Virus record (IMG/VR): IMGVR_UViG_3300021962_000081
DNA: 64,000 nt
Direction: 5' to 3' (one strand)
Origin: an uncultured virus (IMG/VR IMGVR_UViG_3300021962_000081)
Lineage: Duplodnaviria > Heunggongvirae > Uroviricota > Caudoviricetes
The translations under genes were made by a program, and so were the position numbers. The notes beneath the pieces are model-generated. The model had not been told where the DNA came from. It saw only the letters and a list, made by a program, of their open reading frames with translations, and did no database searches. The stretch's first letter is position 1. Every line of letters starts with the position of its first letter. This document shows, in pieces, positions 2,060-42,645 of this stretch.

Positions 2060-3163
2060 TTGGCATCTCAAATAAATGCAAGTAATTCTGGGTTTGGTGG
2101 CATAGTCTCTACTGGAGATTCTAGTGGTCAACTACAACTTCAAGCTGCAGGGACTACTGTAGCGACACTTACATCAACTGGGATGACTGTTGCAGGGAGA
2201 TTAAATTTACCAACATGGACAACTGCTACAAGACCTGGAAGCGCTGTTGCTGGAACACAAGGTTTTAATACTACTACTAGCATAATTGAATATTATAATG
2301 GATCATCTTGGCAAGGCGTTGCTCCTATCTCTTTAGTTTCCATTACAGCATCATATTTAATTGTAGCGGGTGGTGGTTCAGGTGGAGGTAATACTGGTGG
2401 AGGCGGTGGAGCTGGAGGACTATTAACAGGTTCAACTACTTTAACATCTGGTACAACATATTCATTTACTGTTGGTGCTGGTGGTGCAGCTATAGTAAGC
2501 ACTGCTTTAGGTAATGCGGGTAGTAACTCTACTGGGTTTGGTCTAACTGCGATTGGTGGTGGTTACGGTGGTGCATATTCAGGATTAGGTGGTGGAGGCT
2601 CTGGTGGTTCTGGAGGCGGAGGCGGAAACTCTCCTCTTACATCAGGTGGTGCTGGAACCGCAGGACAAGGTTATGCAGGAGGCACTCCAGCAAGTAGTTC
2701 TAACCCTTATGCGACAGCTGGTGGAGGTGGAGCTGGTGGTGTTGGAGCTGCTAGTACAGGCACTACAGTTGCTGGTGCAGGTGGTGTTGGAGCAATTACT
2801 ACAATTATTACAACCGCTATAGCAACCTCAGCATCAGTAGGTCAAGTAGTAAGCTCTTCAGTTTATTTTGCTGGTGGTGGAGGTGGGTCAGGATATTCAG
2901 GCGTAACTGGTGGTGCTGGTGGTAATGGTGGTGGAGGATCTGGAATTACTGGTGGTAATTCTGTTTCAGGTACAGCTAACTCGGGTGGCGGTGGTGGTGG
3001 TAATGGCAATACAGGCTACTCTGGTGCGGGTGGTTCTGGTGTGGTTATTGTTTCTATTCCAACTGCTTTATACACAGGCACTACAACAGGCAGCCCCACA
3101 GTTGTAACTAGTGGATCAAATACAATACTTATATTTAAATCATCTGGATCATACACAGCATAG
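2060..3163 (+). CDS. Glycine-rich tail-associated/receptor-binding protein (paralog 1)
   Basis: WTTATRP..G..GFNTT..E.YNG..W motif, then a YLIVAGGG..GGGG domain ending FKSSGSYTA. Confidence 0.75.
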   Translation: MASQINASNSGFGGIVSTGDSSGQLQLQAAGTTVATLTSTGMTVAGRLNLPTWTTATRPGSAVAGTQGFNTTTSIIEYYNGSSWQGVAPISLVSITASYLIVAGGGSGGGNTGGGGGAGGLLTGSTTLTSGTTYSFTVGAGGAAIVSTALGNAGSNSTGFGLTAIGGGYGGAYSGLGGGGSGGSGGGGGNSPLTSGGAGTAGQGYAGGTPASSSNPYATAGGGGAGGVGAASTGTTVAGAGGVGAITTIITTAIATSASVGQVVSSSVYFAGGGGGSGYSGVTGGAGGNGGGGSGITGGNSVSGTANSGGGGGGNGNTGYSGAGGSGVVIVSIPTALYTGTTTGSPTVVTSGSNTILIFKSSGSYTA

Positions 3164-3171
3164 GATAAAAC

Positions 3172-3759
3172 ATGGCAAGCATAGTAGTCTATTGGATCCA
3201 CTTAGAAGACCATACTGATATGTTCAGTCAAGGTTATATTGGGGTGTCTAAAAATACTTCTAAACGCTTTGAAGAGCATAAGAATAGACCTTCCAATGTA
3301 CATTTAAAGAATGCTATTAAAAAATATGGTTGGGATAATTTAGTAAAGACGATTGTTTTGATTGCTGATGAAGCATATTGTTTGCTTATGGAAACTAAAT
3401 TAAGAGCTGAAGATAAAATTGGCTGGAATGTAGTTAAAGGCGGTGGTATGCCACCAAGCACATTAGGTAAAAAATTTACTGTATCAGAAGAAACTCGTAA
3501 AAAAATTAGTCTTGCAAATAAAGGGCATAGACATAACCCAGAAACTGAAGCTTTAGTAACTCAAAACCTTTTAATTCATGGAGTCAATACAAGATTTTCC
3601 AAGGGCGTTACACCATGGAATAAAGGATTGCAAATAGGTAAAGAAGCAACAAAACATTTACATATTAAACTAACTTGCCCACATTGTAATAAAATAGGCA
3701 ACTTAGGTGGAATGAAAAGATGGCATATGGATAATTGTAGATTAAAGGAAATAGCATAA
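3172..3759 (+). CDS. GIY-YIG family homing endonuclease with NUMOD3-like DNA-binding motifs
   Basis: VYWI...GYIGVS..SKRFEEH, E(TKL), GWN(VVKGG); SEETRKKISLANKG and PWNKG motifs; C-terminal CPHC...WH..NC. Confidence 0.85.
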   Translation: MASIVVYWIHLEDHTDMFSQGYIGVSKNTSKRFEEHKNRPSNVHLKNAIKKYGWDNLVKTIVLIADEAYCLLMETKLRAEDKIGWNVVKGGGMPPSTLGKKFTVSEETRKKISLANKGHRHNPETEALVTQNLLIHGVNTRFSKGVTPWNKGLQIGKEATKHLHIKLTCPHCNKIGNLGGMKRWHMDNCRLKEIA

Positions 3760-4808: not shown

Positions 4809-5825
4809 ATGGCACTCATACTTACAGGAACCGCAGGAGCAAGTACACTAGATAGTTCTACAGGATTAGCTGTGGCTACTTGGACTACAGGTACACGTCC
4901 TTCATCACCTGTGACTGGACAGATTGGATACAATACAACTACAGCACAAATTGAAGTTTATAATGCTACCTATAATAGTTGGGTAAATGCAGGTACATCT
5001 GGAATAACATATTCTGCTTCTTATTTAGTAGTAGCTGGTGGTGGTGCTGGTAGTGCTGCTACAACAAGTCCAGGATGGCTTGTAGGATCAGGTGGTGGTG
5101 CAGGAGGATTATTAACAGGCACAAGTACATTATCTTCTGGTGTTACATATACAATTACTGTTGGAGCTGGAGGTGCTGGTAATTCAACAGGAAGTGGAGC
5201 TTCAGGAGCTAATTCAGTTCTATCTGGTACAGGAATAACTACTATTACTTCTATTGGAGGTGGGTTTGGATCAAATCCAAGTGCAACTGCTGGAGGTAAT
5301 GGAGGTTCTGGAGGTGCTCCTGGAGGAAGTGGGTCAGTTGGCTCTGGAACTACTGGACAGGGAAATAATTCAGGAACTTCTACAGAATCAACTCCAAATT
5401 ATGGTCAAGGCGGTGGTGGTGGAGCTGGTGCAGTTGGAGGCAACGGAACTTCAACAACAGGTGGCAATGGTGGTGCAGGAGTTGCATCATCTATAACAGG
5501 ATCTTCTGTCACTTATGCAGGAGGCGGTGGTGGTGGAACTTATAATGGTGGAACACGAGGAACTGGAGGATCTGGAGGGGGAGGTAATGCAGGAGATAAT
5601 CCAACAGGTAATGGATATAATGGTACTGCAAATACAGGCGGTGGAGGTGGAGGAGCTTCATCTTCTTCTGTAAATCAATCTGGCGGATCAGGAGGATCAG
5701 GTGTAGTTATTTTATCCGTACCTACAGCAAACTATTCTGGTACTACAACAGGTTCACCTACAATTACAACATCAGGCTCAAATACTATAATTAGATTTAC
5801 TGCATCTGGCAGTTATACAGCTTAA
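4809..5825 (+). CDS. Glycine-rich tail-associated/receptor-binding protein (paralog 3)
   Basis: WTTGTRPSSP..GQIGYNTT plus Gly-rich domain ending FTASGSYTA. Confidence 0.75.
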   Translation: MALILTGTAGASTLDSSTGLAVATWTTGTRPSSPVTGQIGYNTTTAQIEVYNATYNSWVNAGTSGITYSASYLVVAGGGAGSAATTSPGWLVGSGGGAGGLLTGTSTLSSGVTYTITVGAGGAGNSTGSGASGANSVLSGTGITTITSIGGGFGSNPSATAGGNGGSGGAPGGSGSVGSGTTGQGNNSGTSTESTPNYGQGGGGGAGAVGGNGTSTTGGNGGAGVASSITGSSVTYAGGGGGGTYNGGTRGTGGSGGGGNAGDNPTGNGYNGTANTGGGGGGASSSSVNQSGGSGGSGVVILSVPTANYSGTTTGSPTITTSGSNTIIRFTASGSYTA

Positions 5826-30824: not shown

Positions 30825-31041
30825 TCATATAAAAGCATTTCCACGTACAAACGACTGCAACCAACTAGGCATGGATCTTCGTGATTATTTTGCAGCCCAT
30901 GCTATGAAAGAAATGTTTGATGCGGGATGGATAGACTCTGGAATGATTGAAGAGGTTGATTTAGATAACTTAGCAAAATGGTCTTATATAATGGCAGATG
31001 TAATGTTAAAGGCTAGAGATGAAAATAACCAATCAGTTTAA
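30814..31041 (+). CDS. Conserved phage protein (GM.LRDYFAA family)
   Basis: AFP....GMDLRDYFAAHAM...Y.MAD.ML.AR; GGAGG then GTG start. Confidence 0.7.
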   Translation: MKRNHIKAFPRTNDCNQLGMDLRDYFAAHAMKEMFDAGWIDSGMIEEVDLDNLAKWSYIMADVMLKARDENNQSV

Positions 31042-31894
31042 CTTACCTAAACCATTTGAGAATATAGCTAAGAATCCTAGCTACTCAAAAGGTAAGGCTC
31101 ATATATCTGCAACAAGCTTACTTAATAGTCCTAAGATTGTTACGCTATTAAAGAAGTATGATGATGAGTTAGAGCAAGATGTATCAGATATGATCTGGTC
31201 TATCTTTGGTTCAGCAGTTCATAACGTACTTGAAAAAGGTGCTGATGAACATAACTTAGTGGAACAAAGGTTTTTTGCTGAAATAGATGGTTGGCATATC
31301 TCTGGTGCTATTGATCTTCAAGTGGTAGATCCTGATGGCATTCATATTAAAGACTACAAGACTACATCTGTTTGGGCGGTGATGAATGATAAGCCTGAAT
31401 GGGAACAGCAACTTAATATCTATGCATGGTTAGTTTACAAGAATAAACAAGTGCCTATTAAATCATTACAGATTGTTGGCATCTTAAAAGATTGGAGTAA
31501 ACGTGAGGCTGAACGTAAGCCTGAGTATCCACAAAAGAATGTAGCTATTGTAGATATTCCGCTATGGACATTTGAAGAACAAGAAGCTTTTGTAAGAGGC
31601 CGTATTGCTAAACATAGTGCATCTGAATTTGCTATGGAAACAAATGGTGACCTGCCAGACTGCACGCCACAAGAGATGTGGGAAAAGCCACCTGTATGGG
31701 CAGTGATTAAAGTAGGTAATACAAGAGCCAAGTCTCTACATGAAACAGCAGAGTTAGCTGATGCTGCGCTACAAGAATTAGGTAAAGGTTATGAAGTGCA
31801 AGTTAGAAAAGGTGATAGAACAAGATGCAAGGAGTATTGTTTAGTAAATAAATGGTGCAAGCAATACGCAGACTACTTAAAGGATCAAGCATGA
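31019..31894 (+). CDS. PD-(D/E)XK exonuclease (Cas4/RecB-like)
   Basis: GSAVH, ISGAIDL, DYKTT, QLNIY, C-terminal RC..YC....C. Confidence 0.8.
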   Translation: MKITNQFNLPKPFENIAKNPSYSKGKAHISATSLLNSPKIVTLLKKYDDELEQDVSDMIWSIFGSAVHNVLEKGADEHNLVEQRFFAEIDGWHISGAIDLQVVDPDGIHIKDYKTTSVWAVMNDKPEWEQQLNIYAWLVYKNKQVPIKSLQIVGILKDWSKREAERKPEYPQKNVAIVDIPLWTFEEQEAFVRGRIAKHSASEFAMETNGDLPDCTPQEMWEKPPVWAVIKVGNTRAKSLHETAELADAALQELGKGYEVQVRKGDRTRCKEYCLVNKWCKQYADYLKDQA

Positions 31895-32133
31895 CCAAAG
31901 AACAATCAGATGGGTCTACAGCAAGCTATTATGAATTACCCAGCGGTGCTACTGAATTACAAGAATTAATTAGTGCTAAGAATATGAATGCACAGATTGG
32001 TGAGATATTTAGAGCTTGTTATAGATATGGACAAGTAGCTCATAGTCCAGAGATAAGAGATATAAAGAAGATTTTATTCTATGCGAAAGCTGAATTAGAA
32101 CGATTAAATAAACTAGAAAAGGAAAATGTATGA
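31891..32133 (+). CDS. DUF3310-like (T7 gp1.7-like) protein
   Basis: ASYY.LP....LQ.LI....N...G.IFRA.YR.G.......DI.K..FY. Confidence 0.5.
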   Translation: MTKEQSDGSTASYYELPSGATELQELISAKNMNAQIGEIFRACYRYGQVAHSPEIRDIKKILFYAKAELERLNKLEKENV

Positions 32134-32810
32134 GTGTATATAGAAAACTACAGGAGGCTAGGTTAGAACTTCAATCTACCTCACTAAAGAAGTCTGGCAA
32201 GAATAAGTTTGCTAACTTTGAATATTTTGAACTAGGTGATTTCTTACCTACTATTCAGAATATATTTTTGAAACATGGACTATGTGGAGCGATTACTTTC
32301 TACACTGATATTGCCATATTGACTATTGTTGATACTGACAAACCAGAAGATAAGATTGAATTTAAGAGCCCTATGTCCACAGCTGAGTTAAAAGGATGTC
32401 ACGCCATTCAAAATCTTGGGGCTGTGCAGACTTACTTGAGGCGGTATCTTTGGGTGGCAGCTATGGAGATCGTTGAACACGATTCTCTTGATGCTGTGAC
32501 AGGAAAAGATGAGCCAAAAAAAGCTAAACCTACAGTTGAAAGTCCACGCATTGTAGGTGACAAAGGCGAGTGGCAAATAGATGCACCAGCTGACCCATTA
32601 GGTCAAGACGTTAAGGGTTGGTTGGAATTAATTAGGAATGCAACATATATGTTTTTAGATATGTGTAACAAACCTGAGGATGTGTTAATGATATTTAAGA
32701 AAAACAAAGTATTATTTGACACGGTTAAATTAACTGACCCATCATTCTTTTCAGACATGATGACTAAGTTTACAGAAGTAAAAACAAAACTAGAAAAGGA
32801 AGCAGTATGA
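32130..32810 (+). CDS. erf: ERF-family single-strand annealing protein
   Basis: KKSG.N.F..F.YFEL.D, Q.LGA.QTY.RRY, EHD.LD. Confidence 0.85.
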   Translation: MSVYRKLQEARLELQSTSLKKSGKNKFANFEYFELGDFLPTIQNIFLKHGLCGAITFYTDIAILTIVDTDKPEDKIEFKSPMSTAELKGCHAIQNLGAVQTYLRRYLWVAAMEIVEHDSLDAVTGKDEPKKAKPTVESPRIVGDKGEWQIDAPADPLGQDVKGWLELIRNATYMFLDMCNKPEDVLMIFKKNKVLFDTVKLTDPSFFSDMMTKFTEVKTKLEKEAV

Positions 32811-35566: not shown

Positions 35567-35914
35567 ATGACCACCCGTCTTATCAACGATTATACAGTTA
35601 AGGTAACGTATGATATGTTGAGAAAGATGCCCCCATTCAATGACTGGAAACTTCCAGCCCCACACAAAATTATTTTTGAAACAAACACTGATCCAACTAT
35701 CTGCGGTGAGTTTGATGTAGAGCCAATGATTATGAGGATTAGCACGCACCACCAAGAAACCTATGTCAACATGATGAGAACCGTTGCACATGAAATGGTT
35801 CATCTAAAGCTTTACTTAGATGGTAAAACACATTATGATAAGCATGATCAAACATTTAGGAAATTGATGTTTCAATTCAATGCTTTATACGGGTTTGATA
35901 GGAAAGAATTATAA
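35567..35914 (+). CDS. SprT-like zinc metalloprotease-domain protein
   Basis: TVAHEMVH...H...F. Confidence 0.65.
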   Translation: MTTRLINDYTVKVTYDMLRKMPPFNDWKLPAPHKIIFETNTDPTICGEFDVEPMIMRISTHHQETYVNMMRTVAHEMVHLKLYLDGKTHYDKHDQTFRKLMFQFNALYGFDRKEL

Positions 35915-35930
35915 ACTTACGAGGGAAACC

Positions 35931-36635
35931 ATGAAATATAAATCAGTATTAGTTATATCAGATCTACATATTCCGTACCACCACCCAGATGCTTTTGCTT
36001 TTCTCACCGCACTCAAAAAACAATACAAGCCAGACCATGTAGTCAACATAGGTGATGAATTAGATATGCACGCTATGTCTATGCATGATAGCGATCCAGA
36101 CTTATACTCTGCTGGTCATGAGTTGGCTGCCTCTATATCTTATATTCAGAAGCTTGAAAAGATATTTCCTAAGATGACTATCGTTCACTCTAATCATTCA
36201 TCTATGTTATTTAGACGTGCATTAAAACATGGTGTGCCTAAAGGTTACCTTAAACATTACAATGATTATCTTGGTGTAGGTAATGGTTGGCAGTGGGTTG
36301 ATGATCACACAATTACTTTGTCAGATGGTTCACGTTGTTTCTTTACTCACGGATTATCTGCTGACGTTCTTAAAGTAGCCATGCAGTATGGTATGAATAC
36401 GGTTCAGGGCCACTATCATACGAAGTTCAGCATTGGCTACTACTCTAATCCAGATGCACTAGTCTGGGGTATGCAAGTTGGTTGTTTAATCAATCAGAAG
36501 TCTATGGCATTCCAATATGCTAAAAACTTTAAGACTAGATTCATTGTAGGTTGTGGCATGATCATCAATGGTCAGCCTAAACTCATGCCTATGATGCTTA
36601 ATGCAAATGGTAAATGGATTGGTAAACTTTTGTAG
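35931..36635 (+). CDS. Calcineurin-like metallophosphoesterase
   Basis: SDLH, GDELD, SNH, HG, GHYH motifs; start at ATG 35931 after CGAGGGA. Confidence 0.85.
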   Translation: MKYKSVLVISDLHIPYHHPDAFAFLTALKKQYKPDHVVNIGDELDMHAMSMHDSDPDLYSAGHELAASISYIQKLEKIFPKMTIVHSNHSSMLFRRALKHGVPKGYLKHYNDYLGVGNGWQWVDDHTITLSDGSRCFFTHGLSADVLKVAMQYGMNTVQGHYHTKFSIGYYSNPDALVWGMQVGCLINQKSMAFQYAKNFKTRFIVGCGMIINGQPKLMPMMLNANGKWIGKLL

Positions 36636-36815: not shown

Positions 36816-37028
36816 ATGGCAAGTGAAGCAGGAAAAGGCAGTAAACAAAGACCCACTAATAGAGAAGCCTATGACGAGGCATATGATCGTATATGGGGCA
36901 AGAAGAAGAATCAATCCTATAAAGATAAACCATACAAAGATGGCGTAGCTTATGATTCAGATTCAGAAATGCTTCGTGATATTAGATATGATGTAAAGTA
37001 TATACCAGACGATCACTATGAAGAGTGA
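36816..37028 (+). CDS. Small conserved phage protein
   Basis: GKGSK.RP....Y...YDRIW motif. Confidence 0.55.
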   Translation: MASEAGKGSKQRPTNREAYDEAYDRIWGKKKNQSYKDKPYKDGVAYDSDSEMLRDIRYDVKYIPDDHYEE

Positions 37029-37179
37029 GGTTCAGTCGCCTTGCATTAAAGTTTGTAAGCTGGAAAACAATCACTGCGTAGGCTGTGGTAGATCTAAGCA
37101 TGACATTACTTATTGGAATGAATACAGTAATGAGAAGAAGTTCCAGATAGTAAGAAAACTTAAGAAGAAAAAAAGATGA
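37018..37179 (+). CDS. DUF1289-like Cys-rich (putative Fe-S) protein, 53 aa, not in ORF track
   Basis: SPCIKVCKL....CVGCGRS..DI..W. Confidence 0.7.
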   Translation: MKSEVQSPCIKVCKLENNHCVGCGRSKHDITYWNEYSNEKKFQIVRKLKKKKR

Positions 37180-37280
37180 ACAAATTAGACCCTATCGTTC
37201 ACGGAATAGTCATTGCCGCCATGATGTATGGAATGTATGGTGTCATTAAACTATTCATAATGATGTATCAATACTTCTAA

Positions 37281-37895
37281 TTACCAAAACATAGTTAATA
37301 CGCCATTCAAGCGTATCAAATGTCCTTGTAATGTAATCCTGTATTCCCCATTCACATAAGTTTTTAATCCAGCAATCCTATGTAGCATAGTGCCATCATG
37401 GCCTATAAATTCTTTCTCTTCATAGGCTATATGTTTCTGTTTCCCATCTTCAATATAATCCAACCCACCCCCACCGCTTGGCATTTTGATTGCTACGGTG
37501 AATGCATAGGGATCAACTGATCCTAAGTCTAATGTAAGATGCGGGTAGTCTTGATGCCAAAGACCTGCATGGTTAAGCAGGAATGGACTTGACATAAAGA
37601 TGTGGAAGGAAGGTATTGCTAGGCGATCACTGATTGCAATAGGCTCACCGAACTGATTCGATAAGTGATCAATAATGATACCATATAAGCTATCAAATTC
37701 TTTTAAAAGTATTGGGTTTAGAGTCTTGATTTCCTCATGGTAAGCTGGGGTCTTGCCATCTAGGTAAGAGCACCTTCCAAGAGTGTAGAACGGGAATTCA
37801 TCTGATCTTGATATCCAGTGATGTTGCAGTCTAAAGACTTTATCGGCTATATCATCAACATCTATATCAAGTTTATGGCGTACAAAAGGGGACAT
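37281..37895 (-). CDS. 2OG-Fe(II) oxygenase superfamily protein
   Basis: H-x-D (WHQD), FTVAI..P..GGGL, distal H (LHRI), R (YRITLQG). Confidence 0.7.
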   Translation of the reverse strand: MSPFVRHKLDIDVDDIADKVFRLQHHWISRSDEFPFYTLGRCSYLDGKTPAYHEEIKTLNPILLKEFDSLYGIIIDHLSNQFGEPIAISDRLAIPSFHIFMSSPFLLNHAGLWHQDYPHLTLDLGSVDPYAFTVAIKMPSGGGGLDYIEDGKQKHIAYEEKEFIGHDGTMLHRIAGLKTYVNGEYRITLQGHLIRLNGVLTMFW

Positions 37896-37904
37896 AAGTC
37901 CCCT
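37883..37904 (-). terminator. Hairpin/terminator after pqqA, overlapping the oxygenase RBS and start codon
   Basis: Minus strand AGGGGAC-TTAT-GTCCCCT-TTTG. Confidence 0.55.
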
Positions 37905-37939
37905 ATTATACTACTAATAGCAATCTGTTACGATAACCA

Positions 37940-38011
37940 TTACTTGTTCATTACGTACATAGTTACTTCAAAGCCAAATCTCATTTCAGTAGCTGCTGGT
38001 TTTGTCCACAT
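37940..38011 (-). CDS. pqqA: PQQ precursor peptide PqqA (23 aa, not in ORF track)
   Basis: MWTKPAATEMRFGFEVTMYVMNK with the E-x3-Y motif; AGGAGA RBS upstream. Confidence 0.95.
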   Translation of the reverse strand: MWTKPAATEMRFGFEVTMYVMNK

Positions 38012-38128
38012 AATATTCTCCTATATGTTTATATTTTGCTATTTTGTATACACGTTATTGTGTATATGTTTATATTATGCCCATTTATATACATATCCAT
38101 CAGTAAAACCATGAATCCAGCCTAATAC

Positions 38129-38149
38129 TATATAACATTTAGTTATATA
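38129..38149. promoter_or_regulatory. Perfect 8-bp inverted repeat (possible operator) between divergent units
   Basis: TATATAAC-N5-GTTATATA. Confidence 0.35.
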
Positions 38150-38180
38150 CAAGTATTTCTATATAATTTTTACAAATATG

Positions 38181-38209
38181 TTGACAGGAATAGTCAGGTT
38201 TGCTATAGT
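38181..38209 (+). promoter_or_regulatory. Near-consensus sigma70 promoter
   Basis: TTGACA-N17-TATAGT with extended TG. Confidence 0.8.
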
Positions 38210-38215
38210 TTCGTT

Positions 38216-38322
38216 GTGAGTCCCTTTCCTCACGGCTTTTCTTTATCTACTCTCTCTGATAAAGTCTCGGTGTCCCTCGCACCTTAAAACCCTTAGGCTG
38301 ATCACCTAGGGGTTTTTCTTTT
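38216..38322 (+). ncRNA. Putative sRNA with three pyrimidine-loop hairpins and a terminator
   Basis: Promoter directly upstream; hairpins GTGAG/CTCAC, CTTTATC/GATAAAG, GGTG/CACC; no ATG in the unit. Confidence 0.7.
38286..38322 (+). terminator. Intrinsic terminator of the sRNA
   Basis: AAAACCCTTAGG-CTGATCA-CCTAGGGGTTTT followed by TCTTTT. Confidence 0.8.
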
Positions 38323-38329
38323 GTACCTC

Positions 38330-38358
38330 TTGCTTTTTTAATCCAATAGGTGTAAATT
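38330..38358 (+). promoter_or_regulatory. Probable sigma70 promoter of the replication operon
   Basis: TTGCTT-N17-TAAATT. Confidence 0.5.
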
Positions 38359-38364
38359 TATAAA

Positions 38365-38675
38365 TGAGAGATTAGAGAAGAAAAGTTGATGATGTATTTC
38401 TACGTCATTATCTTTCTATACTCAATCTATCCGTACTCCAAACGTTATCAGTGCACCTACATGGGTGGCTTGGAACGAAACATAGGCCTTGTTTACACCC
38501 GCAAGCGAGCCTCGTGAACTTAAATGGGTATCACACAAGATGCATAGGACTGGGGTGACTTGCCTACTATGCACCGATTGAACATTAACTCTGTGTAGGA
38601 TTGGTATTGAGTGTGCTTCTGTTGCTCTCTATGGATCAAAGGTGATACTTCTCACCCTAGGCGGAGCTATGTCTA
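38365..38675 (+). ncRNA. Candidate large structured RNA (or replication-origin element)
   Basis: At least 7 nested helices, including a long-range ACATAG/CTATGT closing stem; no ORF of 60 aa or more. Confidence 0.5.
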
Positions 38676-39037
38676 AAAACAATGAAAGGATCATATGAGT
38701 TTTGAGAAAAGAAAACAAGATGGCTTTTTAACTAAGAAGCTTGCAGAAGAATTAAAGTTGTATCATACTACTCCTGAGGAACTAGATCCCGTTAGAAAGA
38801 TGGCAATAGATTATCTGCTCTCTGATAGCTGGAAGAATTACAAAACATATAAGGGAATCCCACAATGAACTTCACACACGCAGTAGTAGATGATGGCGAT
38901 ATCATCAGAAAATATCGTTGGTCAAAACGAGAAGCTAAATGGTATAAAGATACGCACCCTGATATAGATGTGATAGAGTTACCTAAAGAACCAAAGGAAG
39001 TATTTAACATTAACGATTACGAGGAAGCACCATACTA

Positions 39038-39205
39038 ATGAGCGAAGTCTATCATAAAAAATATTTAACGACTGAACAGGTCATAGCAATCAAGAAGGCA
39101 TTAAAGACCATGCCTATTCCAAAAGTAGCTAAAGAATTTAATCTTAACAAACACAATGTAAGAAATATCTATCTTGGTATTTCATATAGAAACGTGGGTG
39201 AGTAA
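39038..39205 (+). CDS. Small helix-turn-helix protein (55 aa)
   Basis: LT.EQV.AIK.....MPI.KVAKEFNL....VRNI..G.SYR. Confidence 0.55.
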   Translation: MSEVYHKKYLTTEQVIAIKKALKTMPIPKVAKEFNLNKHNVRNIYLGISYRNVGE

Positions 39206-39364
39206 CATGGCTGAGACAAAGAAAACAATCATAGTTGAAAATGTTTTAGTTAAGGGGTATATTAAACACGCTAATGGAAAAAAGACTTTGTTTGAATTTA
39301 ACAAACAAGACTTTAACCCAAAAGCATTCGAGAAAATATTTGAGGAAGTGGGGAATAAATTTTA

Positions 39365-39592
39365 ATGTATACCGCAATTGATGACAGGAAGATGGCCAAT
39401 AAAATATTGTTTTATATTGTAGGATGTCCAAATGCTACGATAGATGACATCATTAATAATTGCCATACTAACTACCGCAGATTAAAGAAGTTAGAAGCAG
39501 AGGGATATATCGTATTACCAAAACCAACAGCGAGAGGACAAAGAAATAAGCAATACTATGAGGACAAAGCCATTCAATCAAGCGGTGCATGA
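39365..39592 (+). CDS. Small winged-helix-like protein
   Basis: KIL.YI...P.AT..DI.......YRRLKKLE.EGYI. Confidence 0.45.
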   Translation: MYTAIDDRKMANKILFYIVGCPNATIDDIINNCHTNYRRLKKLEAEGYIVLPKPTARGQRNKQYYEDKAIQSSGA

Positions 39593-39980
39593 TGCTTGTG
39601 ATCCGCCAGCAAGGGAAGCAGTAAGTAAGTATATCAAAGCCACATGGGGAATGAATGCGTGGCACAATCCTAATCAGTATGCAGTTGATCTCATTATCGA
39701 AAAAGATAAAGAGTTAATCGGCTATGCTGAAATTGAAATGAGAGATTGGGATCATTGTCCCTTCAAAACAATCCATATACCCAAGCGAAAAGATAAACTA
39801 TTCAACAACGATAAGAAGACTATTTATTTTGTTGTGTCAAGAGGTATGGAACGTGCATGGTATATAGATTCACAAGTGATTAAAGATTCAGCAGTCGCTG
39901 AGATACCTAACAAAGCAGTAAGTCAAGGGGAATATTTTTACGATGTTCCTACATACCTATTCACTGAAGTAAATTTGTAG
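39558..39980 (+). CDS. PD-(D/E)XK-like nuclease
   Basis: YAVDL......YAEIEMR.W...TIHIP.RK. Confidence 0.5.
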   Translation: MRTKPFNQAVHDACDPPAREAVSKYIKATWGMNAWHNPNQYAVDLIIEKDKELIGYAEIEMRDWDHCPFKTIHIPKRKDKLFNNDKKTIYFVVSRGMERAWYIDSQVIKDSAVAEIPNKAVSQGEYFYDVPTYLFTEVNL

Positions 39981-39993
39981 CATAGAATTATAA

Positions 39994-40290
39994 ATGAGAG
40001 ACAAGCCACAATATACAGATTTAGAACATAGGATATTAGAGTTATCTGATGTCATTGATATGTTAAATGAAGAGAACATTAAGCTCAAAGATATTGTTGC
40101 CTCTCACCAATGGAATGCAACAGAGTTTGAACAAGATTATATATTGCATGAGATCACTCAACTCAGAAAAGATATAGCAGTGCTAGAGAAGAGCGAAGCA
40201 AGTGCAATAGCAAGTAGAGATATGTTTCAAAATAGAAATGCAGAATTACTAAAACAATTAGCGTATTACAAGAGGCTTCACAAAGCCTAG
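39994..40290 (+). CDS. Coiled-coil protein upstream of the helicase
   Basis: L.EEN..LKD...SRD.FQ.RNAEL..Q. Confidence 0.55.
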   Translation: MRDKPQYTDLEHRILELSDVIDMLNEENIKLKDIVASHQWNATEFEQDYILHEITQLRKDIAVLEKSEASAIASRDMFQNRNAELLKQLAYYKRLHKA

Positions 40291-40327
40291 CCCACGCCAG
40301 AGGGAATCTGGAAGTTAAAGGATAATA

Positions 40328-41815
40328 ATGTTAGAACTAAGAGAACACCAAAAGGGTGTTATTGATGCATTGCGTCAAGGATTTAAAGATGGTCATAGGG
40401 CTCAACTACTCTACGCACCCACAGGATTTGGAAAGACAGAGGTAGCTATCTACTTGATGGAAGCTACAAGAAAGAAAGATAACCGATCAGGCATGATCTT
40501 AGATCGTATAGTCTTAGTAGATCAAACATCACAACGACTAGAGAAGTATAATATTTTTCATGGCGTTCACCAAGCTGACCATTGGAAATATAATACATCA
40601 GAACTCATTCAAATATGCTCTTCTCAAACATTAGAGCGCAGACAAGACTTTCCAAAGATGGACTTGTTGATTATAGATGAATGTCATATTGCAAGAAGAC
40701 AGATCACAGAACTGATTAAGAAGAACCCAAAGCTCAGAGTGATTGGACTTACCGCTACACCCTTCACAAAAGGACTTGGTGATATCTATACCAATGTTGT
40801 ATGCGGATCAACGACACAATCCCTCGTGATTAATAAATGGTTAGCCCCTCTCAAAGTTTATATTGCCAAAGAAATTGACATGAAGGGCGCTAAAAAGATT
40901 GCGGGTGAATGGTCTCCTGATGTTGTTACAGAACGAGGCATGAGAATAACAGGGGATATTGTTCAGGAATGGATTAAAAAGACCCATGAGATATTCGGCA
41001 GGCCACGCAAGACCATAGTCTTTTGCGCTGGAGTAGCACATGGTCAAGACTTGGTTAAGCAGTTTGCCGAGAAGGGATACAATTTTGTATCTATCTCATA
41101 TAAAGAAACAAGCGAATTCAAGAAGGAGGTGATCGAGAACTTTAGCAAGCCCGATACAGACATTCATGGATTAATTGCTACTGATATTTTAACTCGTGGC
41201 TTTGATGTCCCTGATGTAATGATCGGAGTATCCGCTAGGCCATTCAGTAAATCCCTATCCTCACATATTCAACAGATGGGTAGGGTGATGCGCCCTTCGC
41301 CTGATAAAGAGTTTGCCTTATGGTTAGACCACTCAGGTAATTATGTCCGCTTCCGTAATGAATGGGAAGAAGTCTATCAAGAAGGTGTTAAAGACTTAGA
41401 CCCTAGCAAGATAGAACACGCACATAAAGAACCCACAGAACGAGAAAAGAAAGAAGCTAAGTGTCCCGCTTGCTCTGCGTTATGGGAACATGGATCAGAG
41501 GAATGTTATGCTTGCGGTTATGTCAGGAAGAAAAAACAATTCGGATCAATAGCGGGTGAGATGCACGAACTAGGTATGAATGGTCGTGATAAGCTAGAGA
41601 ACCGCCAACAATTCTTCTCTGAGTTGTTATACGTTGCTAAGAATAAGAATTATAGTCCTAATTGGGCAAGCCATAAGTATAGGGAAAAGTATGGTGTATG
41701 GCCTAGAGATTTAGTATATCGAACTGACACCCCATCTATTGCTACTATGAATTGGATCAAACATAGAATGATCGCTTATAGTAAAGCTAATAAAAAAGAT
41801 AGGAAGGTAGCATGA
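40328..41815 (+). CDS. Superfamily II DNA helicase (SSL2/RadD-like) with Zn finger
   Basis: APTGFGKT, DECH, GLTATP, RGFDVPD, QQMGRVMR, CPAC..C..CG. Confidence 0.92.
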   Translation: MLELREHQKGVIDALRQGFKDGHRAQLLYAPTGFGKTEVAIYLMEATRKKDNRSGMILDRIVLVDQTSQRLEKYNIFHGVHQADHWKYNTSELIQICSSQTLERRQDFPKMDLLIIDECHIARRQITELIKKNPKLRVIGLTATPFTKGLGDIYTNVVCGSTTQSLVINKWLAPLKVYIAKEIDMKGAKKIAGEWSPDVVTERGMRITGDIVQEWIKKTHEIFGRPRKTIVFCAGVAHGQDLVKQFAEKGYNFVSISYKETSEFKKEVIENFSKPDTDIHGLIATDILTRGFDVPDVMIGVSARPFSKSLSSHIQQMGRVMRPSPDKEFALWLDHSGNYVRFRNEWEEVYQEGVKDLDPSKIEHAHKEPTEREKKEAKCPACSALWEHGSEECYACGYVRKKKQFGSIAGEMHELGMNGRDKLENRQQFFSELLYVAKNKNYSPNWASHKYREKYGVWPRDLVYRTDTPSIATMNWIKHRMIAYSKANKKDRKVA

Positions 41816-42645
41816 GGTTCGAAGATTTTGCAAGGATACATGGTCTCATCGTTGATCGTGTGATCCCACATAGACAAGTTAGAACACCCACAGAAGATAA
41901 ACCAAGAAGTAAAAACGGATCGTATAAGTTCTTAGGCCATGTTGGTTTTGTAATTAATTGGGCTACGATGGAAGAGCCAGCAATTTGGTTTTCTGATGAT
42001 AAAACCGCCTCAGTCGAGGTGTTTAAAAAGAGTTCAATCGATCACACTAAAGAGCGTGAACGTCTAGCTAAGAAAGCAAGTGAGAAAGCGGGTTGGATAC
42101 TACACCAATGCAAACAAGAAAACCACCCATACCTAGCATCTAAAGGATTTCCTAATGAGTTAGGTAATGTATGGACTAAAGATAATGAACGCATATTAGT
42201 TATACCCATGCGGATCGACAAAAGACTCGTTGGTTGTCAACTCATCGATGACAAGGGGGTCAAGAAGTTCCTGTATGGTCAGACTACTAAGGGGGCAACC
42301 CTCACCATGAACGCAAAAGGGTATCCCATCTTCTGTGAGGGGTATGCGACTGCCCTTAGCATCAGAGAAGCCATGATCGCTAACAATGTCAAGTATTCGA
42401 TCCACGTTTGCTTTAGTGCATCTAACATGAAGTTCGTAGCAGGGCAATTCCCCTATGGACTCATCGTTGCCGACAACGATCACTCCCATGTTGGTGAGAC
42501 TACCGCTAGGAAAACAGGCAAGCCTTATTGGATTTCGCCCGCAATCTCCGAAGATTTTAATGATTTTCATAAACGAGTAGGCCTCTTTAAAGCCTCTCAA
42601 TCCCTTAAAAAGAAGTTAATAGAGATAGGTAGCTTGGTGTTCTAA
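41812..42645 (+). CDS. Toprim-domain primase-like protein
   Basis: HPYL..KG, LVIPM, Q.I...G.KKFL.G, CEGYATALSI, ADND, DFND. Confidence 0.85.
   Translation: MRFEDFARIHGLIVDRVIPHRQVRTPTEDKPRSKNGSYKFLGHVGFVINWATMEEPAIWFSDDKTASVEVFKKSSIDHTKERERLAKKASEKAGWILHQCKQENHPYLASKGFPNELGNVWTKDNERILVIPMRIDKRLVGCQLIDDKGVKKFLYGQTTKGATLTMNAKGYPIFCEGYATALSIREAMIANNVKYSIHVCFSASNMKFVAGQFPYGLIVADNDHSHVGETTARKTGKPYWISPAISEDFNDFHKRVGLFKASQSLKKKLIEIGSLVF

Follow-up and report, generated by a model that had tools for sequence, protein, structure and literature searches.

The window, that is, the whole stretch of 64,000 nucleotides analysed here, comes from an uncultured virus of the Caudoviricetes (IMG/VR record IMGVR_UViG_3300021962_000081). 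A preliminary description of this DNA had marked a densely base-paired, non-coding element of ~310 nt at 38365-38675, at the head of a replication operon. The following features lie around it:

31019-31894, + strand: exonuclease, left of the element
32130-32810, + strand: Erf annealing protein, left of the element
35880-36635, + strand: metallophosphoesterase, left of the element
37281-37895, - strand: uncharacterised protein of 204 aa
38181-38209, + strand: strong sigma-70-type promoter TTGACA-17-TATAGT, with TG before the second hexamer (11/12, the best in 37000-40000)
38213-38316, + strand: short hairpin-rich leader started by the 38181-38209 promoter
38213-38236 and 38286-38316, + strand: terminator-like hairpins in the short leader, the latter followed by a T-run (scan)
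38330-38358, + strand: weak promoter-like site TTGCTT-17-TAAATT (8/12), with a predicted RNA start at ~38364-38366
38367-38427, + strand: long 5' hairpin (fold), with the tip TGATGATGTA/TACGTCATTA
38431-38672, + strand: conserved core of ~240 nt, ten helices plus pseudoknots (alignment, RNAalifold, mutual information, pair counts)
38686-38697, + strand: ribosome-binding site AAAGGA and ATG, at the same site in close relatives
38695-38868, + strand: first operon gene
40328-41815, + strand: SF2 helicase
41812-42645, + strand: Toprim primase, beyond which the coding strand turns

The limits first given to the element were nearly right, as can be seen from the predicted RNA start, the 5' hairpin and the core in this list. 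Its placement at the head of a replication operon is borne out as well: the downstream genes lie on the same strand and end in the SF2 helicase and the Toprim primase. The core is part of a ~330-nt untranslated leader of this operon, and the ribosome-binding site follows 14 nt past the core. In two relatives a ribosome-binding site is kept after the RNA despite a different first gene. Several small ORFs on the + strand lie between 38695 and the SF2 helicase gene, and no intrinsic terminator was detected on the + strand of the window in 38700-42645. The core occurs once within the 64 kb.

The terminator at 38286-38316 is also present in three close relatives. The promoter-like site at 38330-38358 had been described as a second one upstream of the element. 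Although it scores only 8/12, and is missing from the promoter scan because this value falls below the scan threshold, its place is conserved in eight relatives. The TGATGATGTA/TACGTCATTA pairing noted at the outset is the tip of the long 5' hairpin, and a hairpin with a different sequence is kept in close relatives. Short ORFs of 42-43 aa (+ strand) and 50 aa (- strand) can be read inside the region.

A family of compactly folded phage RNAs

The + strand of 38365-38675 folds with -93.4 kcal/mol, compared to -79.2 ± 4.2 kcal/mol for 100 dinucleotide shuffles (z = -3.42), none of which was as good, whereas the - strand is ordinary (z = -0.70, with 25 of the 100 shuffles as good). This fold and the covariation across 75 homologues that is presented below establish the ~310-nt structured non-coding element as real. 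A blastn search with a 651-nt query gave a sole match among 50,697 GenBank phage records, MW202674.1 from an uncultured P22-like podovirus. The match comprises 130 of the 651 query bases with 77% identity, all 130 of them within the structured region, and the structured RNA is the only DNA-level match to the query in that record. Two further family members used as queries again found MW202674.1 alone. Its locus lies between divergent genes, where tiny hypothetical proteins have been annotated on the strand opposite to the RNA.

The census of IMG/VR was based on exact patterns only, namely two conserved 16-mers shared with MW202674.1 and a 21-mer pattern taken from a different conserved block. 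The 16-mers located 27 and 61 loci, 7 of the latter being chance matches as judged by eye, and the 21-mer pattern at least 120, with 3 chance matches judged in the same way among those listed. All patterns together gave at least 178 occurrences and at least 117 distinct cores. The conservation of the family is no search artefact, because the loci found through one block show conservation of the other block too. A joint stricter pattern, applied to one genome per species (185,579 bacterial and archaeal species), was present on two small MAG contigs from different phyla.

Near-duplicates were removed at >0.6 common 8-mers, giving 75 non-redundant members, and their MAFFT alignment (A2) has 324 columns, 53 of which are invariant. 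RNAalifold predicted 37 pairs on A2, 24 of them with compensatory changes, and the top pairs of a mutual-information scan were nearly all Watson-Crick. Both results were merged into a model with 50 pairs, 14 helices, pseudoknots and three lone tertiary pairs. On A2 the 50-pair model is 94.6% paired, versus 70.0 ± 0.5% when the 3' partners are shuffled (0/500 shuffles as good), and sliding the partners by 1-3 columns lowers the pairing to 32-41%. Its covariation score is 0.614 versus 0.188, and 41 of the 50 pairs show changes on both sides among the 75 members. The elements of the core in the coordinates of the window are given here, with what each was drawn from:

38432-38434 with 38442-38444, + strand: P1 (both-sided changes)
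38437-38440 with 38471-38474, + strand: pseudoknot of the P1 loop (both-sided changes)
38454-38457 with 38464-38467, + strand: P3 (both-sided changes)
38441 with 38448 and 38463 with 38481, + strand: single covarying pairs of the 5' domain, 38432-38474 (both-sided changes)
38484-38487 with 38509-38512, + strand: P4 (pair counts)
38488-38492 with 38501-38507, + strand: P5, loop end CACCC (pair counts)
38514-38518 with 38529-38534, + strand: P6, loop CTTAAATGGG (99.5% paired, compensatory changes in 5/5 pairs)
38540-38545 with 38569-38574, + strand: P7 hairpin, with GGTGA (38554-38558) in its loop (compensatory changes in 6/6 pairs; 80% of the cells paired, in a region where the MAFFT register is imperfect)
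38554-38558 with 38652-38656, + strand: long-range helix GGTGA/TCACC, a pseudoknot to P7 (100% paired)
within 38576-38637, + strand: single-stranded GATTGAACATTA, invariant (alignment)
38588-38589 with 38595-38596, + strand: P8 mini-hairpin (pair counts)
38591 with 38603, + strand: lone covarying pair (pair counts)
38599-38601 with 38635-38637 and 38605-38610 with 38626-38631, + strand: P9 hairpin (pair counts)

The exchange of bases within pairs is extensive, as in A2 columns 37-50 of the 5' domain (CG 36, AU 22, GC 12, UA 4), 67-98 (AU 46, UA 11, CG 7, GC 7) and 102-118 (AU 29, UA 23, GC 22, CG 1), in the lone pair 184-196 (CG 40, UA 35, with no member unpaired) and in the long-range pair 144-294 (AU 51, GC 23, CG 1). 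The long-range GGTGA/TCACC duplex reaches -6 kcal/mol or lower in 75/75 members, with a median of -8.4 kcal/mol versus -4.0 kcal/mol for a shuffled partner, and in some members the complementarity extends up to 9 bp. A local 3' hairpin was rejected as a strong alternative to this helix, its median being -4.6 kcal/mol versus -3.5 kcal/mol for a shuffled partner. A closing helix formed by the U-rich 5' and A-rich 3' flanks was rejected too, its average being -7.3 kcal/mol for the pairs of a locus and -7.0 kcal/mol for cross-locus pairs. The pseudoknotted body of the core holds ~60 nearly invariant bases, and the unpaired ones include GATTGAACATTA and ACAAG. In many relatives P8 is capped by TTCG or TCCG loops, which we take to be UNCG tetraloops, and the UAAAU-like sequences of the P3 and P6 loops presumably resemble T-loops.

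The helices that had been proposed from the window sequence survive the comparison with the 75 homologues only in part: five of them hold, one is a plausible loop-loop contact, one is refuted and two are not supported. TCCA/TGGA and CACC/GGTG are supported by covariation, the former being in fact the pseudoknot of the P1 loop and the latter P3, as is TGCATAG/CTATGCA, which corresponds to P7. The proposed pairing GGTGA/TCACC can form, but TCACC pairs better with the GGTGA at 38554-38558, which covaries. In the composite helix CTTGT..ACCC/GGGT..ACAAG, the inner part would join the P5 loop to the P6 loop, and this contact is plausible as judged from the alignment (92.3% paired, with one-sided changes only). 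The outer part has to be abandoned: CTTGT/ACAAG is 35% paired, CTTG pairs instead with CAAG at 38504-38507, and ACAAG is invariant. TAGG/CCTA, which is paired in 72% of the cells, is incompatible with two of the covarying helices. For the long-range ACATAG/CTATGT closure the value is 74%: the model leaves room for its invariant A-U and U-A core, but not for the flanking pairs, which conflict with pairs that covary. Four of the proposed helices were tested jointly and are 67.8% paired versus 67.6% after shuffling, a value equalled by 181 of 500 shuffles.

Among the model pairs of A2 there are 133 G.U cells versus 35 A.C cells, and therefore the element is an RNA encoded on the + strand, as the G.U pairs seen in the window had suggested. 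No + frame is open across the ORF-bearing part in 40 of the 75 members, and the lengths of this part fall into all three classes modulo 3 (39, 26 and 10 members), so that codon-level conservation of the 42-43-aa ORF, which might have explained the region, is absent. Hence, we regard as negligible the probability that the region is not an RNA at all and owes its structure to a single-strand DNA origin, a protein-coding sequence, an attP site copied from a host RNA gene, or chance. The presence of short ORFs is all that could be put forward for it, against the excess of G.U, the single stable strand, the lack of a conserved frame and the failure of all 500 shuffles to equal the model. A single-strand origin (sso-type), which the preliminary description had considered, was rejected in view of the G.U advantage, the covarying pseudoknots and lone tertiary pairs, and the fact that only the + strand beats its shuffles. 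The lack of a reading frame conserved among the 75 members disposes of a protein-coding stretch. A fragment of a host RNA gene or an attP site was rejected because the motif pair is on only 2 MAG contigs among the 185,579 species' genomes; there is also no integrase nearby and no tRNA or tmRNA.

Comparison with known RNAs agrees with the initial view that this structured RNA had not been described before and that it belongs with none of the tRNAs, tmRNAs, RNase P RNAs, introns or known riboswitches. Rfam 15, with 4227 models that include riboswitches, ribozymes, T-box, RNase P, 6S and tmRNA as well as ROOL, GOLLD, HEARO, OLE, raiA and C4 antisense RNA, gave no match at gathering thresholds in the whole window. 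A permissive scan of 37900-38900 gave four matches with E 1.2-9.6 and 14-17 bits, compared to thresholds of 39-80 bits. In 20 diverse members the same models produced three unrelated matches (miRNA and lncRNA models), all of them at least 42 bits below threshold, and ARAGORN found no tRNA or tmRNA gene in the window. Two 14-mers of the motif are present in no paper covered by a full-text search, and the occurrences of a 10-mer among the matches listed are unrelated. The IMG/VR survey of Fremin et al. 2023 (PMC10690425) is described as covering >10,000 candidate viral RNAs; the family was not found in those of its supplementary files that were searched, and may stand unnamed in the large ones. 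Reports on new non-coding elements (2026 preprints, NAR) describe other RNAs in the portions available. Thus, the segment 38431-38672 on the + strand is a member of a large, uncatalogued family of compactly folded phage RNAs.

Surroundings across the family

The flanks of 71 loci were surveyed. Nearly every member has a long hairpin directly 5' of the core, with a median of -44 kcal/mol over 122 nt and a sequence that differs by class, and in most members it carries a U-run 12-20 nt upstream of the core. After the hairpin, a T-run within 35 nt upstream of the core is found in 65/70 loci. Most classes leave no space for a promoter between this T-run and the core; their promoter lies ~115-130 nt upstream, and the core must therefore be made by read-through. 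The class of the window differs in having a separate terminator, a weak promoter and then a hairpin without a strong T-run. As regards a stand-alone RNA gene, it follows that the class of the window has a promoter of its own (38330-58), whereas most classes have none between T-run and core. A kissing loop in the leader was seen in six hand-checked cases, a wider count being confounded by the own arms of the long hairpin.

The neighbouring genes are less constant than the RNA. A gene of the P22_Cro/YdaS type lies just upstream on the same strand in 37/71 loci, and no flanking protein cluster exceeds this number. In 57 of 62 loci the three upstream ORFs include a divergent gene, in many cases that of Erf or SSB, and in 52 of 63 the strand of the RNA carries at least 70% of the downstream ORF length. 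The RNA stands next to a divergent early control region. Downstream families vary: the replication initiator phrog_270 is present in 23 loci and the SF2 helicase in 8, and ParB-like, acyltransferase, methylase and HNH proteins are also found. The phages that carry the family are uncultured, apparently mostly from freshwater and P22-like or lambdoid.

On the 3' side, the distance from core to gene ranges from ~14 nt to >200 nt. Past the core most members have an A-rich run; a small hairpin ~15 nt after the core is present in many relatives and absent in the window (the pattern written for this hairpin, which was too strict, found it in 10/71 loci). Of the 45 loci listed (47 scanned), one has a + strand terminator in the 150 nt that follow the core, and the downstream regions of the 47 loci (202,524 nt) contain 12 intrinsic terminators on the + strand versus 23 on the - strand. 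A good sigma-70-type promoter lies within 130 nt after the RNA in 12/71 loci, for instance TTGACA-17-TAATAT in MW202674.1.

Relatives of the element were also found in assembled contigs of three metatranscriptome studies. These contigs have 80-95% likeness to the window and shares of 0.05-0.11 of the sampled words, and they show presence, not level, ends or strand. A 361-nt contig of a relative, which covers 38386-38697, begins ~58 nt upstream of the core and extends into the next gene. At its start an adapter remnant and 13 further nt precede 38386, and therefore a molecule end near the predicted RNA start can be surmised, as weak evidence. Other contigs cover 38392-38541, 38215-38450, 38456-38593 and 38575-38959. 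Both edges of the core are crossed unbroken, which is compatible with partial cleavage. The contigs, which may include DNA, weakly indicate that the RNA is transcribed, and that it shares a transcript with the downstream gene.

Possible roles of the RNA

The preliminary description had left the choice between a ribozyme, a primer RNA and a leader, and the context favours the leader. A large catalytic RNA, self-cleaving or with another activity, might process the early transcript, for instance by cutting at its own 5' edge and so setting the cro-side and replication messages apart. It would account for the pseudoknotted core and the many invariant unpaired bases (GATTGAACATTA, ACAAG), as in ribozymes of glmS size. 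Phages are rich in small ribozymes, and the locus offers a natural processing point between two gene sets. We nevertheless regard this role as quite improbable, since no Rfam ribozyme family matches even at E up to 10 and the contigs from RNA libraries span both edges of the core, although partial cleavage is compatible with them. Priming of phage DNA replication, by an RNA that would act at an origin in the manner of ColE1 RNA II, seems very improbable to us. ColE1 RNA II is a structured primer made ahead of a replication function, with an A-rich stretch towards its end, and the family shares with it the position directly upstream of genes for a replication initiator, helicase or primase as well as, in most members, the A-rich run. 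RNA II, however, is not conserved in the junction- and loop-rich way of the family. The RNA stays constant while the proteins downstream change from replication initiator or helicase to ParB-like protein or acyltransferase; a primer would be expected to change along with the type of replication protein, and this makes it the less likely role. Moreover, its steadiest neighbour is a Cro-type regulator plus a terminator instead of a replication protein.

Two further readings invoke a partner or a ligand. A new riboswitch, or a switch sensing another ligand or factor, might toggle the downstream genes by alternative pairings between the CACCY segments (P5 loop and 3' end) and the GGTG-like segments (P7 loop and 38641-38645). 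The position in a 5' leader suits this possibility. The two CACCY copies co-vary (A2 columns 83 and 299: CC 50, UU 21, UC 3), TCACC at the 3' end is able to pair with the one or the other GGTG segment, the complementarity being longer in several members, and the duplex of the P5 and P7 loops reaches -6 kcal/mol or lower in 35/75 members. All the same, a switch is clearly unlikely, as nothing resembling an expression platform is seen. No terminator follows the core, the members share no anti-Shine-Dalgarno sequence, and the distance to the gene is not fixed; the local 3' hairpin is a weak alternative, and the ~60 near-invariant bases exceed those of most aptamers. Known phage riboswitches belong, to our knowledge, to host classes, whereas the motif pair of this family is limited to the two MAG contigs in the bacterial and archaeal genomes. 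A stable trans-acting RNA, cut from the early transcript (e.g. at the upstream hairpin), is rather unlikely, but it deserves attention. Such an RNA would bind a tRNA-handling enzyme, RNA polymerase, the ribosome or a defence protein, or mimic its substrate, or it would assemble like the ornate phage RNAs. This is in line with a self-contained fold with 53 invariant columns in diverse members, with its independence of the neighbouring gene families and with the promoter that downstream genes have of their own after the RNA in some loci; the UAAAU of the P3 and P6 loops, if T-loop-like, would also fit. The early position counts in its favour as well, an early genome position being typical of host-takeover and anti-defence functions. 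On the other side, the 3' end is not closed by a terminator in all but one of the loci listed, the RNA keeps the orientation of the downstream genes, in the window the ribosome-binding site adjoins it, and the RNA-library contig of a relative continues into the next gene.

Tentatively, and with considerable doubt, we think that the RNA is a cis-acting leader domain at the operon head, which would gate delayed-early expression by acting on the host machinery. The RNA would be placed at the border between immediate-early and delayed-early transcription, where the polymerase would have to read through the hairpin with the U-run in order to reach the core (the window has an extra weak promoter in between). 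Once transcribed, the core would fold into its pseudoknotted body and act on the machinery that handles the same transcript. By analogy with put and EAR, the elongating RNA polymerase would be the likeliest target, possibly with protection from Rho included, whereas the ribosome or the stability of the transcript are less likely ones. Escape from the early terminator would then commit the phage to expression of the replication genes. The high conservation amid unrelated neighbouring genes suggests a conserved partner, namely the host machinery. We count in favour of the leader the constant orientation with the downstream genes, the divergent upstream gene, the Cro-type neighbour, the T-run after the long hairpin, the replication genes downstream, the lack of a closing terminator, the nearness of the ribosome-binding site in the window and, as weak evidence, the contig that extends into the next gene. 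Against it we count that the core lies after the first terminator, unlike put or nut, and that the distance to the next gene is variable. In addition, the promoter behind the RNA in part of the loci implies that some downstream transcripts would lack the RNA, and intrinsic terminators, the kind covered by the scan, are not enriched downstream, so that they give no sign that antitermination is needed.

Known systems and significance

The closest known system is the put RNA of HK022 (putL/putR), presented as an RNA-only processive antiterminator of a lambdoid phage (PMC9378689). Like put, the family is a cis-encoded structured RNA in early operons of lambdoid or P22-like phages, with a put-like slot in the genome, after the early promoter or cro and ahead of the delayed-early genes. 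No phage protein is needed by put, and its conservation is explained by the binding of host RNA polymerase. In contrast, the core of ~240 nt, with ten helices plus pseudoknots, has no evident sequence likeness to put, and it stands after a terminator-like hairpin with a T-run, whereas put stands before the first terminator. With its two stem-loops, put is ~70 nt long, and a put-type arrangement of two stem-loops in ~70 nt before the first terminator is not found in this family. The slot is also that of lambda nutR-tR1, in which cro, a terminator and then the replication genes follow each other in a divergent early control region. The nut site consists of a short linear box with a single small hairpin, and it requires the N protein; here, a folded RNA of 240 nt comes after the terminator.

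Structured leader or intra-operon RNAs are known from other bacteria and mobile elements, and the family resembles them in this respect. EAR (eps-associated RNA) is a structured RNA that drives polymerase read-through of the terminators of long operons. A read-through system of conjugative elements, conAn, is described as needing a protein partner (PMC8191782). Both differ from the present family in their Gram-positive hosts, sizes and folds, and no such Rfam match was obtained here. ROOL and GOLLD are reported as large ornate RNAs, common in phages and prophages, that form multimeric cages (bioRxiv 10.1101/2024.12.08.627333). The family is comparable to them in being phage-associated, elaborate, strongly conserved and found by comparative genomics before its function; unlike it, they are in Rfam, and neither model matches here. 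Both are 2-3 times longer than ~240 nt.

Large multi-helix, pseudoknotted RNAs with dozens of invariant bases are rare, and, once understood, such RNAs have nearly always been ribozymes, riboswitches or the cores of ribonucleoproteins. We would give somewhat less than an even chance to the idea that the family is a new class of RNA machine, whose ~60 invariant bases grip a host machine or catalyse, be it an RNA-only polymerase modifier several times the size of put, or a ribozyme or sensor that would allow the replication genes to follow the immediate-early ones. At least 117 distinct copies are present in a single viral collection, and no other DNA common to these otherwise dissimilar phages is as well conserved. 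It occupies a decision point of the early programme, and it has been found in no cultured phage among the 50,697 GenBank records and has no entry in RNA catalogues. An immediate consequence concerns annotation, as the region is represented in MW202674.1 by four tiny hypothetical proteins on the wrong strand. The family could also serve as a sensitive marker for a clade of uncultured phages. In our opinion, it is a defined target for structure determination and biochemistry, and it may represent a new route by which phages control transcription or hijack the host machinery.

Genes and sequence elements around the RNA

On the downstream side of the conserved structured RNA core that heads the replication operon, two small open reading frames follow one another in the window:

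38695-38868, + strand, 57-aa ORF, preceding the next one
38865-39038, + strand, another 57-aa ORF, with which the operon opens behind the RNA in several relatives

The second of these is the leading gene after the RNA in the related loci L092, L105, L130 and L147, as well as in one metatranscriptome contig. In the stretch 10-45 nt past the core, many relatives (e.g., L093, L104, L120 and L149) carry an A-rich run and then a small hairpin, whose stem is TAGG(G)/(C)CCTA and whose loop is also A-rich; we take this hairpin to resemble a boxB-type site, and the window lacks it. In some relatives there is also a good promoter after the core, with an AT-rich region upstream of it.

The divergent early control region beside the core is adjoined by this gene:

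37281-37895, - strand, 204-aa protein

A Pfam search with this protein gave no match, and its sole match was PHROG 24927, a family labelled as being of unknown function. Its cluster occupies the equivalent position in 6 of the 71 family loci with flanking sequence.

Database annotation and matches in species genomes

In the GenBank genome MW202674.1 (locus L001), the annotation places four tiny 'hypothetical protein' CDS (30-49 aa each) at 4881-5377 (2710-3206 of the locus), on the strand opposite to the RNA. They lie over the core and its hairpin leader and are very probably not genes. Only two matches to the family were found in species genomes, L211 and L212, both of them short contigs of metagenome-assembled genomes (MAGs), one assigned to Methylococcaceae and one to Sediminibacterium, whose phyla are unrelated. 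Both were probably swept into the MAG bins as phage contigs, and they are not informative on the host.

The leader upstream of the core

The region's strongest promoter (TTGACA-17-TATAGT) drives a unit of only ~100 nt, which contains three small hairpins and a terminator:

38181-38320, + strand, promoter and the ~100-nt unit that it drives
38286-38316, + strand, terminator of this unit, rated good

The unit has the look of a short leader that is terminated early, or of a separate small RNA. Its counterpart in other classes of the family is the leader of hairpin plus T-run that precedes the core. In relatives, the 170 nt leading up to the core contain a small 5' hairpin and the long terminator-like hairpin; the loop of the former can pair with a 6-8-nt bulge in the 3' arm of the latter. 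Loop and bulge co-vary in the six loci that were checked by hand (L104, L106, L093, L121, L114 and L164), with pairs such as CTAGAAC/GTTCTAG, CTGAAAC/GTTTCAG and CTGGAAT/ATTCCAG. The relatives' leader may thus form a kissing contact and act as a regulated attenuator in its own right.
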